Virus record (IMG/VR): IMGVR_UViG_3300037510_000266 | Location: 1 to 60,249 of that record | DNA: 60,249 nucleotides | DNA from: a virus | Direction: 5' to 3' (one strand) | Part shown: one piece after another, positions 17,152 to 44,556 of the stretch | How the letters are laid out: the number at the start of each line of letters is the position of its first letter | How positions within the stretch are numbered: the first letter of the stretch is position 1 | The notes under the pieces: generated by a model | What the model saw: the letters and a program-made list of their open reading frames with translations, nothing else | Databases searched by the model: none | What the model was told of the DNA's origin: nothing | Position numbers and translations under genes: made by a program

Positions 17152-20100
17152 GTGGGACTCTATCGTTCACCCACCGGCGCGATCGAGTCGATCGACGACG
17201 ACAAGGCGAGCTCGGCGCTCGCCAGTGGCTATGTGCCAGTCACGTCGGCGCAGTCTGGCGCGCCGGTTGAATCTGACGCCACCGGCGGCATTCTCGGGAC
17301 GCTGAATGCCGGTGCGACCTCGGTGCTGTCTGGCGCGACCCTCGGGCTGTCGGACGTCGCTTTACGTGGCATCCTCAATCGAGGCGACATGCGGCGCCTG
17401 GCCGCAGATCGCGAGGCCAATCCGATTGTATCCGGTGCCGGCCAGGTCGCCGGGGCCATTCTGCCTTCGCTGGTGGCGCCGGGATCGATCCTCGGACAAG
17501 CACCGGCCGGGGTGCTTTCGCGCGCTACGGCGCCGCTGGTAGAGCGTGGCGGGCTGTCGGCGCTTGCCGCAGGCGGCATCGAGGGCGCGGCGCAGAACGC
17601 CGGTGCGTATCTGTCCGATGTTGCGCTCGGAAACCGCGACCTATCCGCCGAGGGGATCGCTGGTGCCGTTGGTGGTGGATTCGCGTTTGGCGTCGGAGGC
17701 GGCGTCGTGGCGATGGGTATCGAGAAGGGCACGATGGCCGCGCGGCGCATGTTCGCACGCGTCGCGGATGGTGGCGAACGCGCGGCGAACGAAGCCGAGC
17801 AGGCGTGGATGACGCAGTATCAGGCGACGATCGAGGCACACGACGCGGCGGTTAACGCCGCAAAAGCGCAACTTGCCGCGGCACGCGCCGCACGCGAAGA
17901 TGCCGCGTTGGCGCGCAATCGGGCCGCGGCAACGACGGCCGAGACACGTATCAATGCACCACAGATCGACGCCGAGCGCGCATCGGCGCAGGCGTTCGAT
18001 GAGCTTGCTGCGAAGGAAGCGGCCATCAAGGCGGCCGAGCTGCCGCCGGTGAAGGTCGGTAACATCGACGATCTCGAGCGGCTCATATTCGGACAGCAAG
18101 AGGCAAAGTCAGAGCTTGATGATCTAATGCGTCAGGTTGAGTCACCAGCGGTTGAGACTGCTCCGGTTGGAGAGGTTCATGAGCCTGAAACAGTTAAATC
18201 AAATATTCCAGATTACTCAACCATCAAAGATTACGAGAAGAAGTTTGATGACTATCTAGAACAAACCATTCCTGCTCGATCAATCGCAGAACGAGGATAT
18301 TACGAACCTCCGGGACGTGAAGGTATCGATAGCGTTCGCATGAGGAATGCCAGGAAAGCAATATCCGAAGGACAGCGCGATGCAATTAAGCTTGGTGTTT
18401 CTGAAGATGGCAAAGTCGTGCTGTCCGATGGTCGCCATAGGTTGCAGGCTGCAATAGAATCTGATTCTCCTGTAAAGGTAAAATGGTTCAGCTCGAGTTC
18501 TCCTGCATCGCATGACGTATTGCGAACTGGTGAAATCGTAAAGCCAGCGATGGGCTCCGCATCCTACGATGCATATAAGTCATCGTTCGTTAAAGGTTTA
18601 TCTAAAGAAGAGATTGATGCAGCAAAGGCGTATAGCGGTGGATCTCATGCATCTATTAATCGAGCAATTGAAAATCAAGCTGAGATGTCAGCGAAAAATG
18701 CTGAAAACACTCGCTTGCTAGATTCTTTGATATCTCGTTCGTCTCTTCCAGAAGACATGACTGTTTTTCGTGGCATCCAAAGCGATGAGATATTTGACAA
18801 ATATTCAAAATTGAATCCTGGTGATGTTTTCTCTCACGGACGCTTTACGTCAACCACTGCATCAGATGAATTGCCTAGGGAATTTTACGGAAATGTGGAA
18901 ATGCGAATCAAGCTCCATAAGGGAGATCATGCCGCTCCTATTCCAGCATTAAAGTCACAGGAACGAGAATTACTTCTTCCGCGTGATCAAAAATTTAAAT
19001 TGACGTCATTACAGAACTTTGGAGGTAAGCGTCTAATCGTTAACGTTGAAGCTGTTAATGAATCAAGCAATCTTGAGTATTTATTGCGTGGAACCAGCGA
19101 GCGCGTTGCATCAGGCGAGTCACTAAAATCGATCGGCGCTCCTTCGGCTGCTGAATATGCAGCCAACAAGTCGACAAAATCAGAAGCCGCGTCGCGAGCA
19201 TTCCGCGAGCGTGCTGCGTTCAAAGAACGCGCTGGCATCGGATCGGCGCGACGTAGCTACAAGGTCAAGCAACTCGAGATCGCGCATGATGCGGCGATCG
19301 ACCGCGCTGCCACGGCGATTGATCCGGCAGAGCGTGCAACGGCGACATATGAAGCCAACGCGATCGAGCAACAGCTCGCCATCGCTGGACGTGCGTCATC
19401 GGCGCCGGACGACATCGCGCGGCTTGCGCCAGCGATCGAGAAGTACGAGCGCAAGTCAGCAGAGTTGACAGAAGGACTCGGCGAAGCGGCACCACAGACG
19501 GCGCGCGAGCACGCCGCGGCGTTTCGTGCTGCCGAGGACGAGGCCGATCGCAAGGTGACCGATCGCGCCACGCGTGCCGTGGATGACAGCGTGCATCCGC
19601 CGACCGGCAAGGGCACGATTATAAATCCGCAGGACTTCGAGCGCGTCTTCGGCAAGCCGATGCCGCTGCCGCCGACGTCCGCGGAAGCGCTCGCCTCCGC
19701 GAAGCAAGATCAGCTCGCGTCATCGGCTGCATACAAGCGCGCCAAGGCGACAGAGACCGAGGCGAAAATCAACGCGCGTAGGGCCACAGATGCGCGTAAG
19801 GCCATCCCTGAGCGACCCAAGGCAATCCCGCCGGTGCCACGCGAAGCATCGACGCTCGGATCGATCGCGACGGCGATTGGCGTGGCCGGCGAGCTCGGAA
19901 TCCCGGGTATCCCGAAGCCGGAAGACATCCCCGTGATCGGACCGCTCCTCGGTGCGTACATCAAGTACCGCGCAATCAAAGCGACGGCGGGACGGTTCGT
20001 CGGTCGCGTCGCGGCCACGGGCGATACGCGTGCGGCGGCGCTGGCGGCGCGTACGAAGGACAAGATCGTCACCGCTGTTGATCGGACGCTAGGCCTCGCC

Positions 20101-24138: not shown

Positions 24139-24372
24139 CTACTCGTTCCTCGCGATGGCCGCGTTCGCCCACATGACGGTCTCTTCGAAATGTGCCAATG
24201 CAAGCAACTGCTCGCGTGACGACGGAGTCTCAGTGGCGATCATCGTAGCAAGTTCCTTCGCCTTGTCGCGAATGGCGACATAGCGATCGCGCTGATCCTC
24301 CTTCGGCGCGTGATACGTGAATGCGAAGTTGATCTGATCGGTGACTCGTTGTTGTAGTTCGTACTTGGACAT
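24139..24372 (-). CDS. Hypothetical small helical protein
   Basis: 77 aa. GGAAG lies 6 nt upstream of the ATG. C-terminal ..LLALAHFEETVMWANAAIARNE. Conserved-looking, but I cannot name the family. Confidence 0.6.
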   Translation of the reverse strand: MSKYELQQRVTDQINFAFTYHAPKEDQRDRYVAIRDKAKELATMIATETPSSREQLLALAHFEETVMWANAAIARNE

Positions 24373-42933: not shown

Positions 42934-43010
42934 TGGTGCCTCTGGCTGGAGTCGAACCAGCAACCTATCGCTTATAAAGCGATTGCTCTAACCAAATGAG
43001 CTACAGAGGC
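42934..43010 (-). tRNA. tRNA-Ile (anticodon UAU), CCA encoded
   Basis: The reverse complement folds canonically: GCCTCTG-TA-GCTC/ATTTGGTTA/GAGC-A-ATCGC/TTTATAA/GCGAT-AGGTT-GCTGG/TTCGACT/CCAGC-CAGAGGC-A-CCA. Confidence 0.9.
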
Positions 43011-43014
43011 ATTA

Positions 43015-43185
43015 TTATCGTCGATGCTCATCGACGGTCATATCCGCAATCATCTCCTGATACTCTGGCGATTGCAAGTACGACGCGTGTGCATCGTCTA
43101 CGGCATGGCGGTTACGCGTATCAATGGTGTCGCCGCGACGACGTGCGAATCGCGCGACAGCGACAGATATTTGACGTTGTGTCAT
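43015..43185 (-). CDS. Hypothetical small protein
   Basis: The internal ATG at 43185 gives 56 aa (MTQRQISVAVARFARRRGDTI..). The longer 100-aa version would overlap the peptide gene. Confidence 0.4.
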   Translation of the reverse strand: MTQRQISVAVARFARRRGDTIDTRNRHAVDDAHASYLQSPEYQEMIADMTVDEHRR

Positions 43186-43198
43186 GGCTTCAATGGGG

Positions 43199-43212
43199 CC
43201 GCCCGAAGGCGG
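43199..43212 (-). terminator. Small GC hairpin after the peptide gene (possible attenuator)
   Basis: - strand CCGCC-UUCG-GGCGG lies 9 nt after the peptide stop. No U-tract follows. Confidence 0.25.
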
Positions 43213-43220
43213 AATCGTGG

Positions 43221-43406
43221 TCAGTCGACGGTACAGCCGACGTAGCTGCCACATGCCGTCGGACTGGTAGCGCACATGGCCGTAAGGCAGTCCCACGTAG
43301 CGCACGTACACGTGCACTCGGCCGGCATTCCGCCATTGACCCGGCTCAGTTCATCTCCCAGGACGCGAACGGTTTCCGCCTTGATCTTTAATTTCTTCTT
43401 CTTCAT
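43221..43406 (-). CDS. Double-glycine-leader Cys/Thr-rich peptide (bacteriocin/RiPP-precursor-like)
   Basis: MKKKKLKIKAETVRVLGDELSRVNGG | MPAECTCTCATWDCLTAMCATSPTACGSYVGCTVD. The leader has V(-12), E(-8), L(-7), V(-4), G(-2), G(-1). The 35-aa core has 7 Cys, 7 Thr, 2 Ser. Confidence 0.55.
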   Translation of the reverse strand: MKKKKLKIKAETVRVLGDELSRVNGGMPAECTCTCATWDCLTAMCATSPTACGSYVGCTVD

Positions 43407-43506
43407 TTTTTTGATCCGATCGTGGTGCCAAGCAGCCCGCATCGCGCATCGATGCGGTACCGACGGGCATCACGCCCTCAGTCCTACACAGGTCTGACCG
43501 GTGGTG

Positions 43507-44556
43507 TTATTGGCAGAGACCACCGTCGCTGGTCCCCCCGGCCCCGTCATCATAGGCCGGATCGCAGCTGGCGCGCTGCCAGACGTCGGGGTCGTAAATC
43601 GACCAGTATGGGGCCGGGCGAAACGAGTCCGGGACGGGGAAGCTCGGTGGCGAGCAATAGTCCGAACACCTGACGGGGTCTGAACACGCTGTCGTCACGT
43701 TCACCGCCTGCTGCACACTTCCAGTGGCCGCAGCCACCGCCTCCTGGGCAGACGTGCGGATCGCATATCGCGCCACGAATCTGGATAGACGACCTAGCCC
43801 GTCGGTAGCTATTGGGTCGCCGAGCACATACACCCTGCTACAGATGTCGCTGCTGTTGAAATTACGGTAGTATCCCCAGCCCCAGCATTTATACTGCAGC
43901 GTGTGCGGGTGGATCCCGACTGTCTTCGTCGAACGTAGCCAGACGTCTACCGCGGTTTTCGCGACTGGCGAGTCGGCGACCACGCGCGTCGAGTATCGAT
44001 ACTGGTTGCCCTGGGAATCTACTTCCTTTGAGGACTCGTACTTCAACGAGATCGAACGAACTCCGACAGAGTCCAAAGTCATGAGCTCGTCGGGCTGGCT
44101 CACGCCGTCATGATTTCGATCCTCCCATAGCCGCAGAAATGGCCAGACCGAGTCGGCTGAATCGACCATGCCGTCGTGGTTCTCGTCGTACACGGCCAAA
44201 GCTAGGAAGCCATTCGGCGCGGTCGATTCCGGTTGCTGCGTGTAATCGCCGAACATCTCAGAGCCGTCGTCGATGGTGCCATTCTGGTCGCGATCGAACA
44301 CCAGCCAGGCGTCGTCTGTACCAGGTAACGTCCAGGACCACTGGCGTACGTGTCCTGGATTCAGAGCGAAGGCGACTCCATCCCCCGGTGCCGTGAGATG
44401 TATTCCGTCCCCATGCAGATCAAGGATGATCGGACTGCCAATGCAGTCGCACGTACCGGTCTCGGCATTAAATTGACAGTTTCCGTTCTGGAGCCCGTTC
44501 GTCGGGCTCGCGCAAGCAATCAAGCTGATCACAAATAGTATCTTCACATGTTCCAT
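43507..44556 (-). CDS. Secreted lipoprotein with three EF-hand-like DxDxDG loops, Cys-rich
   Basis: MEHVKILFVISLIAC has a lipobox (LIAC). AGGAG lies 7 nt upstream of the ATG. Loops DRDQNGTIDDGSE, DENHDGMVDSAD and DRNHDGVSQPDE. Confidence 0.7.
   Translation of the reverse strand: MEHVKILFVISLIACASPTNGLQNGNCQFNAETGTCDCIGSPIILDLHGDGIHLTAPGDGVAFALNPGHVRQWSWTLPGTDDAWLVFDRDQNGTIDDGSEMFGDYTQQPESTAPNGFLALAVYDENHDGMVDSADSVWPFLRLWEDRNHDGVSQPDELMTLDSVGVRSISLKYESSKEVDSQGNQYRYSTRVVADSPVAKTAVDVWLRSTKTVGIHPHTLQYKCWGWGYYRNFNSSDICSRVYVLGDPIATDGLGRLSRFVARYAIRTSAQEAVAAATGSVQQAVNVTTACSDPVRCSDYCSPPSFPVPDSFRPAPYWSIYDPDVWQRASCDPAYDDGAGGTSDGGLCQ

Follow-up and report, generated by a model that had tools for sequence, protein, structure and literature searches.

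The subject of this work is a 61-codon open reading frame (ORF) in a 60,249-nucleotide stretch of DNA from an uncultured soil phage (IMG/VR record IMGVR_UViG_3300037510_000266, positions 1 to 60,249; this stretch in its full length is hereafter called the window). Judged from its pattern of conservation, the ORF is a real gene, conserved as coding, and we assign to it, with a probability of about 0.55, a phage-borne orphan precursor of the class I LanA type that would be matured and exported in trans by enzymes of the host. A preliminary description of this DNA had proposed an orphan precursor of a bacteriocin or of a peptide made by the ribosome and modified after translation (RiPP), and that proposal stands: the gene is real, a family of peptides sharing its leader was found, and the genome, which is complete, holds neither maturase nor exporter.

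Results and Discussion

The complete ORF lies on the minus strand (43221..43406) and counts 61 codons, with a TGA stop at 43221−43223. Its translation, a 61-amino acid (aa) peptide, reads MKKKKLKIKAETVRVLGDELSRVNGG (leader) followed by MPAECTCTCATWDCLTAMCATSPTACGSYVGCTVD (core), which confirms the 26-aa leader and 35-aa core of the preliminary description and shows the peptide and coordinates given there to be exact. The leader follows the double-glycine (GG) consensus with V23 at −4, L20 at −7, E19 at −8, V15 at −12 and G25−G26 at −2/−1, and the claimed pattern of hydrophobic residues at −4, −7 and −12, Glu at −8 and GG at −2/−1 can thus be read directly from the sequence. The core has the composition claimed for it as well (7 Cys, 7 Thr and 2 Ser in 35 aa), together with three Asp/Glu and no Lys or Arg. 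An alternative 73-aa form would start from ATG 43442, a start codon that falls within a stable hairpin.

Source annotations (JGI 3300045391, Logan SRR12692787) call not this ORF but one of 98 aa at 43015..43311 (−), which overlaps its 3′ half. Never having been called as a gene, the peptide has no entry in the large protein database, and for that reason a word-indexed homology search with it gave no match. Homologues did emerge when 1.84 billion proteins were searched exhaustively with phmmer. The first, P0122 (71 aa, E 3.6e-6), has its leader in common with the window peptide (..KLVLRADTVRVL....L.R..GG) and ends in the same C-terminus, APTACGSYVGCTYD; the C-terminal PTACGSYVGCTxD is common to both, with six synonymous codon changes there. 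The second, P0123 (55 aa, E 8e-5), has a leader identical at 16 of 26 positions and an unrelated Cys-rich core, and a further hit, P0121 (2301 aa, E 1e-17), is an artifact of low-complexity repeats and was set aside. Window peptide and P0122 have 32 identical residues, 19 of which are written with different codons (including Ser, AGC versus TCC), and the peptide frame is therefore under purifying selection. In the C-terminal block 14 of 17 residues are identical in the peptide frame versus 7 of 16 in the frame of the annotated 98-aa ORF, and codon usage ranks the peptide frame first among the six (+8.4 bits). The doubts raised in the preliminary description itself have not materialized: the ORF is conserved as coding between the window and P0122, leader-like homologues exist (P0122, P0123 and the further family members described below), and the overlapping longer ORF (43015−43317) is not the conserved frame.

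We consider it highly improbable that the peptide ORF is a hitch-hiking host remnant, unexpressed or unused by the phage, or that the true gene is the annotated 98-aa ORF. Gene callers chose the latter, the Shine−Dalgarno site of the window gene is weak and its codon score borderline, and the gene is absent from the nearest related phage; yet the peptide ORF is intact, and members of its family are also present on four or more further contigs of viral or phage-like character, which have no other gene in common. The N-terminal extension that distinguishes the GTG-extended form (43015−43311/43317) scores only +1.6 bits, in a frame that is not conserved, whereas the short form that starts from an internal ATG reaches +13.8 bits, and therefore the downstream gene most likely starts 3′ of the peptide gene. 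The 98-aa call at 43015−43311 (−) looks like a gene-caller artifact due to the uncalled small gene. In homologous genes strong, correctly spaced Shine−Dalgarno sites (GGAGG, AGGAGG, AAGGAG) are found.

Relatives of the window peptide were collected with a leader-only DNA pattern, [ED]-T-[VIM]-R-[VIM]-L, 3 or 4 residues, L, 4 residues, GG, which occurs once in the window versus 0.00 times expected from 100 shuffles; the family set was chosen partly by eye from the pattern matches. The IMG/VR scan added three small genes for Cys-rich peptides (L014, L016 and L019), with that of L016 adjoining a portal gene, and contig L011 holds two tandem family copies. Bacterial contigs (one genome per species) contributed ~22 true small-peptide loci among the first 120 matches listed, from Kofleriaceae, Haliangiales, Polyangia, other "Deltaproteobacteria" and Thermoanaerobaculia, and further from Planctomycetota/Phycisphaerae, Paenibacillus, Acidimicrobiia and Eiseniibacteriota; Acidobacteriota and Myxococcota are phyla in which this leader family is frequent. 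A scan of metagenome contigs with the gap-9 leader pattern added two clear members among its first 120 matches. Across the 28 sequences, GG occupies −2/−1 in every member, the leaders are 45−60% identical, and the cores (15−48 residues, Cys/Ser/Thr-rich and frequently Cys-terminated) are unalignable except for those of the window and P0122. The general plan of the leader is a K/R-rich N-terminus, then LxLxKx5L, then ...L..V.GG. Conservation of the leader with variability of the core, which the preliminary description had suggested looking for, is thus a property of the family.

The other bacterial pattern matches were discarded as unrelated large proteins that contain ETVRML by coincidence. 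These false positives (among L020−L139) have a conserved ...GIPLYAVETVRMLLDRGLLVEEGG... segment, unrelated to the peptides, which large proteins of Dormibacterota, Chloroflexota and Thermoleophilia share with an Actinoplanes enzyme family. The tandem precursors of L011 (695−871 and 899−1066) have the same leader and different Cys-rich cores. Their 2-kb contig also encodes, on either side of the pair, a coiled-coil membrane protein whose C-terminus is Cys-rich and a multi-pass membrane protein; neither the precursors nor these two neighbors have a family match.

The proteins flanking the phage-context members show no mutual similarity and no Pfam or PHROG match. A conserved neighborhood was accordingly rejected, and the lack of common neighboring genes suggests independent acquisitions. 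Back-translated searches of viral_contigs, genome_contigs (with C-terminal motifs) and metagenome_contigs returned no close relative, and tblastn of the peptide against 50,697 GenBank phages returned chance matches only (E ~1, Xanthomonas phages).

Walker et al. (2020) described a set of class I lanthipeptide precursors in which an LxLxKx5L leader motif replaces FxLD; GG usually closes such leaders, and a C39 protease is often encoded alongside (PMC7268733). For the viridisins, experiments have shown class I enzymes at work on precursors with GG leaders (PMC9680876). The motif occurs literally in relatives of the window peptide, as LVLNKETVRVL (L042), LQLSKETVRVL (L096) and also LMLSKETVRML, and its relaxed form L-x-[LIVM]-x-X-[ED]T[VIM]R[VIM]L fits 24 of the 28 family leaders. 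Homologous precursors beside maturase genes, which the preliminary description had proposed to search for, do exist, with LanB and/or LanC adjoining five bacterial members. In two Paenibacillus loci (L042 and L115) the member lies between lanC and lanB (Lant_dehydr_N E ~1e-163, LANC_like E ~1e-42), LanB adjoins the member in L096 (Planctomycetota) and L043 (Acidimicrobiia), and in L090 (Eiseniibacteriota) LanC and an ATP-binding cassette (ABC) ATPase adjoin it, the ATPase being directly upstream and incomplete at the contig end. From motif and gene neighborhood we conclude that the leader of the window peptide belongs to a GG-leader family associated with LanB/LanC. Heuristic motif flags for peptidase-containing ABC transporters (PCATs) in the bacterial loci were uninformative and were set aside.

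The cores were compared with shuffled versions. As many as 82 of the 98 Cys residues in the family cores have a Ser or Thr 2−5 residues to their N-terminal side, versus 60.5 in shuffles (0 of 5000 reach the observed value), with no excess of Ser/Thr on the C-terminal side (64 versus 60.6). For the seven phage-context cores the count is 27 of 33, versus 19.9 (p = 0.009). This directional Ser/Thr-before-Cys bias across the family cores is, as far as composition and order can tell, the signature of lanthionine rings.

The genome that carries the gene is complete. Its two ends, positions 1−127 and 60123−60249, overlap exactly over 127 bp, as is characteristic of circular assemblies made at k = 127, and the true length is ~60,122 bp. 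It is that of a tailed phage, with an SU10-type adaptor, a tail-fiber chaperone domain, a D5-type primase, helicases, DnaN and a methylase. Pfam scans of its 77 ORFs detected no LanB/C/M, radical SAM, YcaO, C39 or ABC_tran domain, which bears out the earlier remark that no maturase or exporter is to be seen in the genome; nor did they detect an integrase. Searches against cultured phages by megablast (10 kb) and tblastn (637-aa protein) gave no match, and therefore no host can be inferred from a cultured relative.

Several observations weigh against an orphan class I precursor. Next to the weak Shine−Dalgarno site and the borderline codon usage (+8.4 bits) of the window gene, LanB/C lie within the 8-kb blocks of only five of the ~22 bacterial members, and the others could use another pathway. 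The window core taken alone has 5 of 7 Cys preceded by Ser/Thr versus 4.6 expected, which is not significant, and the window motif LKIKAETVRVL (LxIxAx5L) deviates from the published LxLxKx5L, with a conservative I for L and A for K. The family set, besides being selected partly by eye, was drawn from the first 120 matches of each large scan. No curated Pfam/NCBIfam leader or bacteriocin model matches the peptide at E ≤ 1, a weak negative given that HMMER filters easily lose short leader models. Any LanB/LanC/PCAT partner in the host is hypothetical; no integrase was found, and a lysogenic "weaponizing" role is therefore unsupported, and for a lytic phage a secreted peptide would have no obvious use. 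Finally, the ECTCTC run at the N-terminus of the core has no upstream Ser/Thr and looks more azole-like.

This last feature leads to other RiPP chemistry by host enzymes, either YcaO-dependent azol(in)e formation on the CTCTC run or a radical-SAM thioether as in sacti- or ranthipeptides. The ECTCTCAT run resembles azole-forming substrates such as cores of the plantazolicin type, and Cys-rich, Cys-ending cores are common in the family. We nevertheless hold such chemistry to be improbable: beside the ~22 bacterial members listed there is no YcaO or radical-SAM gene, only LanB/LanC, and the leader motif is the published one of class I LanAs.

A further reading, unlikely in our estimate but deserving of attention, dispenses with modification altogether: a host PCAT would export and cleave the GG-leader peptide as it is, and disulfide formation by its seven Cys outside the cell would yield a class II-like bacteriocin or a signaling peptide, for instance one for communication among phages or between phage and host. 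The leader satisfies the double-glycine consensus, most bacterial family members have no maturase nearby, PCATs are known to accept GG peptides encoded elsewhere (PMC7018657), and phage peptide signals such as arbitrium exist (review PMC12360287). This reading must, however, accommodate an odd number of Cys residues (seven, leaving one unpaired), an anionic core (net charge −3) unlike the cationic class II bacteriocins, and a locus in which no immunity or receptor gene is evident and no small membrane-protein gene follows the peptide gene. It also makes the additional LxLxKx5L element, tied to LanB clusters and unnecessary for PCAT recognition, superfluous, and leaves the directional Ser/Thr-before-Cys bias unexplained.

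Most bacterial members lie far from any maturase, and the family is therefore normally served in trans, which in turn makes processing of a phage-borne copy by the host plausible. Several copies may be present per genome (L072 and L094 are on one contig, and L100 holds two), and the members of Myxococcota and Acidobacteriota adjoin CTP synthase, sigma-54, SRP54, PPK2, TIR, STAND, CHAT and WD40 proteins. The preliminary description regarded a phage-borne precursor that plugs into a host pathway as unusual; this is true of the phage as carrier, but the orphan position is normal for the family. Independently of these considerations, the bacterial members L119, L139, L112, L096, L092 and L093 often adjoin proteins of the conflict-system type, namely TIR (two Thermoanaerobaculia loci), nSTAND1-FGE, CHAT-TPR with an extracytoplasmic function (ECF) sigma factor, and kinase-WD40 proteins. 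The association may be real, or it may arise by chance, such genes being abundant in these genomes.

For the orphan class I precursor we propose the following scheme. The peptide would be translated in the infected or lysogenized cell, where a host LanB dehydratase would bind the leader and, using Glu-tRNA(Glu), glutamylate and eliminate Ser/Thr to dehydroalanine/dehydrobutyrine (Dha/Dhb), after which LanC would add Cys thiols to give several (methyl)lanthionine rings, with T11−C14, T16−C19, T24−C26 and S28−C32 as candidates. A host PCAT would then cut after Gly26 and export the 35-residue anionic product. The phage would thus supply the variable substrate only and borrow a pathway with which the host already processes scattered precursors in trans, and its benefit could be weaponizing of the host, signaling or exclusion. 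Both the processing by host enzymes and the biological role of the peptide are what we infer from the patterns described above.

A different benefit would follow if the peptide were a decoy, that is, a leader-bearing substrate that occupies host LanB/LanC or PCAT and blocks a lanthipeptide or GG peptide used by the host for defense, kin signaling or competition. The variable accessory region that holds the gene belongs to a phage with a probable antidefense protein of the Acb2/Tad1 type, antiphage lanthipeptides have been reported (bioRxiv 10.1101/2024.06.26.600839), and the leader is conserved more than the core. We regard this as doubtful: the C-terminal 13 residues of the core are conserved with P0122 under purifying selection, which argues that the core itself is functional, the reported antiphage lanthipeptides are from Streptomyces, and direct evidence for a decoy is absent. 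More tentatively than for the orphan class I precursor itself, one may suppose that uncultured soil phages have repeatedly acquired "bare" lanthipeptide-type precursors, with a host-compatible leader and a phage-specific core, to reprogram or jam a host RiPP pathway; reprogramming would yield a secreted peptide specified by the phage, to serve as weapon, exclusion factor or communication signal.

The features of the locus are collected in Table 1. On the minus strand the order is SPM gene, a 100-nt gap containing a stem-loop, peptide gene, hairpin, small ORF, tRNA-Ile(UAU) and ParB. In the nearest relative, L001 (primase 57% identical), ParB is followed by unrelated small genes, and tRNA-Ile, small ORF, peptide and SPM gene are all absent; the peptide gene therefore sits in a variable accessory region. 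The stem-loop upstream of the peptide gene has no match in Rfam and could be a transcript boundary or regulator. A GC hairpin with a UUCG loop after the stop codon, noted in the preliminary description as seen after many precursor genes, is present, but its value as evidence is lost: it has no U-tract and no terminator consensus, the region folds like shuffled sequence (z = 0.07), and as it is not distinctive we dropped it as support.

Table 1. Features of the Peptide Locus and Its Accessory Segment in the Window
Feature	Coordinates	Strand	Remarks
Accessory ("moron-like") segment: SPM gene, peptide gene, small ORF, tRNA-Ile(UAU)	42934..44556	−	Variable region downstream of ParB
SPM-domain lipoprotein-like gene, 349 aa	43507−44556	−	PF26745 (precomputed); signal peptide, LIAC lipobox
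Stem-loop	43421..43474	−	−40.8 kcal/mol, z = −2.78; inside the 100-nt gap from SPM gene to peptide gene
Weak Shine−Dalgarno remnant GGA, then A-rich spacer	43415..43417	−	
Precursor peptide gene	43221..43406	−	61 codons + TGA; uncalled in source annotation; homologues and synonymous divergence
Leader, residues 1−26, MKKKKLKIKAETVRVLGDELSRVNGG	43329..43406	−	50−60% identical to ~27 other family leaders, from phages and at least four bacterial phyla
L6-K-I8-K-A10-ETVRV-L16, variant of LxLxKx5L class I LanA leader motif	43359..43391	−	
Gly25-Gly26, predicted C39-type cleavage site	43329..43334	−	Read from sequence
Core, 35 aa, MPAECTCTCATWDCLTAMCATSPTACGSYVGCTVD	43224..43328	−	7 Cys/7 Thr/2 Ser, net charge −3
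5-bp GC hairpin CCGCC-UUCG-GGCGG	43199−43212	−	8 nt past stop codon
Downstream small ORF, 56 aa from ATG 43185	43015..43185	−	Codon score +13.8 bits

The SPM protein encoded directly upstream of the peptide has repeated DxDxDG calcium-loop-like motifs and 677 homologues, some of which are fused to M10 or M64 metalloproteases. SPM genes occur as morons in two other phage-like contigs, L005 (beside an integrase) and L009 (among tail genes), and a functional link between peptide and SPM lipoprotein was rejected, no peptide gene following the SPM homologues in these contigs. Of the SPM homologues that carry names, most belong to Pyrinomonadaceae or other Acidobacteriota and one to Kofleriaceae, and together with the distribution of the leader family they give a hint, and only that, of a host among Acidobacteriota or Myxococcota.

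Elsewhere in the window, the 77-aa ORF at 24139−24372 (−) is probably an Acb2/Tad1 hairpin-domain protein, a nucleotide sponge directed against the cyclic oligonucleotide-based antiphage signaling system (anti-CBASS) or Thoeris (anti-Thoeris); the assignment is based on the Pfam family in pooled ORFs (E 1.4e-18) and on weak PDB matches to Thoeris anti-defense 1 chains (E 0.13−0.18). The 1210-aa protein of the tail/virion module at 17152−20784 (+) has an ADP-ribosyltransferase exoenzyme domain at residues 479−630 (PF03496, E 6e-17) and may be an ejected toxin or host-modifying enzyme. Genes for three tRNAs were located, Ile-UAU (42934−43010, immediately downstream of the peptide cassette), Arg-UCU (46289−46363) and His-GUG (52679−52750), the first two of which read A-ending codons that are rare in this 59% GC genome. 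ORFs 55342−55923 (+) and 51944−52657 (+) are likely carriers of the cpYpsA (SLOG) and GerE/LuxR-type helix-turn-helix domains that a Pfam scan of pooled ORFs detected, as assigned by motif reading.

Significance

Phage bacteriocin clusters are already known, and literature searches gave no report of phage genomes carrying a lanthipeptide-type precursor alone. Should host enzymes mature the peptide, a 186-nt substrate gene would suffice for a phage to redirect a bacterial natural-product pathway. RiPP precursors would then join the auxiliary or moron genes of phages, with precursor-only hijacking as a new auxiliary-gene class, the family would offer leader-matched natural substrates to probe the substrate tolerance of LanB/LanC and PCATs, and the leader, which must fit the host enzymes, would become a clue for host prediction. 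Genome mining is blind to genes of this kind: the ORF is uncalled, antiSMASH-type tools require enzymes, and 0 of 50,697 GenBank phages have a homologue. Irrespective of the phage, the LxLxKx5L-GG leader family is extended past Bacteroidetes to Myxococcota, Acidobacteriota, Planctomycetota, Paenibacillus and phages, mostly as scattered orphans.

Comparison with Known Systems

The peptide resembles the substrates of PCATs, also named ABC transporter maturation and secretion (AMS) proteins, such as class II bacteriocins and ComC/BlpC pheromones, in its GG, its hydrophobic residues at −4, −7 and −12 and its Glu at −8, and in that such substrates may be encoded apart from the transporter (PMC7018657). 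It differs from them in its anionic, Cys/Thr-rich core, which is not cationic and amphiphilic, in the added LanB-associated leader element, and in having no PCAT or immunity gene nearby.

As in the case of sublancin 168, encoded on the Bacillus prophage SPbeta, a Cys-rich bacteriocin-type precursor is carried by a phage, which would thereby equip the host with a secreted peptide. SunA, the sublancin precursor, has a leader of the double-glycine type. Bacteriocin clusters of phages and prophages are overwhelmingly complete and belong to temperate phages of commensals and pathogens (bioRxiv 10.1101/2020.10.01.322628). Whereas SPbeta holds the whole pathway (sunA, sunS, bdbA/B, sunT and sunI), here the precursor alone is phage-borne, in an uncultured soil phage with no immunity gene and no sign of temperate life.

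In the prochlorosin system (ProcM/ProcA), one lanthipeptide synthetase serves many scattered precursors in trans. The same combination of a conserved leader, hypervariable cores and genes far from the enzyme is seen in the Myxococcota and Acidobacteriota members of the present family. Prochlorosins rely on a class II LanM and Nif11-type leaders, in contrast to the leader family described here, which is linked to class I LanB/LanC, and we know of no phage-borne prochlorosin precursor; a literature search gave none.

The closest parallels are the LanAs of pinensin family I-17 from Bacteroidetes (PMC7268733) and the viridisin precursors VdsA1-3 (PMC9680876). The phage genome differs from these systems in being without LanB, LanC and C39 transporter, its motif is the variant LxIxAx5L, modification is predicted, and the phyla concerned are Myxococcota, Acidobacteriota, Planctomycetota and Paenibacillus in place of the Bacteroidetes of the pinensins. 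Like these LanAs, the peptide has a basic N-terminus and a Cys/Ser/Thr-rich core, with a variant of the LxLxKx5L element some 10−11 residues before the GG, several divergent precursors share one leader, and leader-matched relatives of the phage peptide reside in lanC-lanA-lanB operons.

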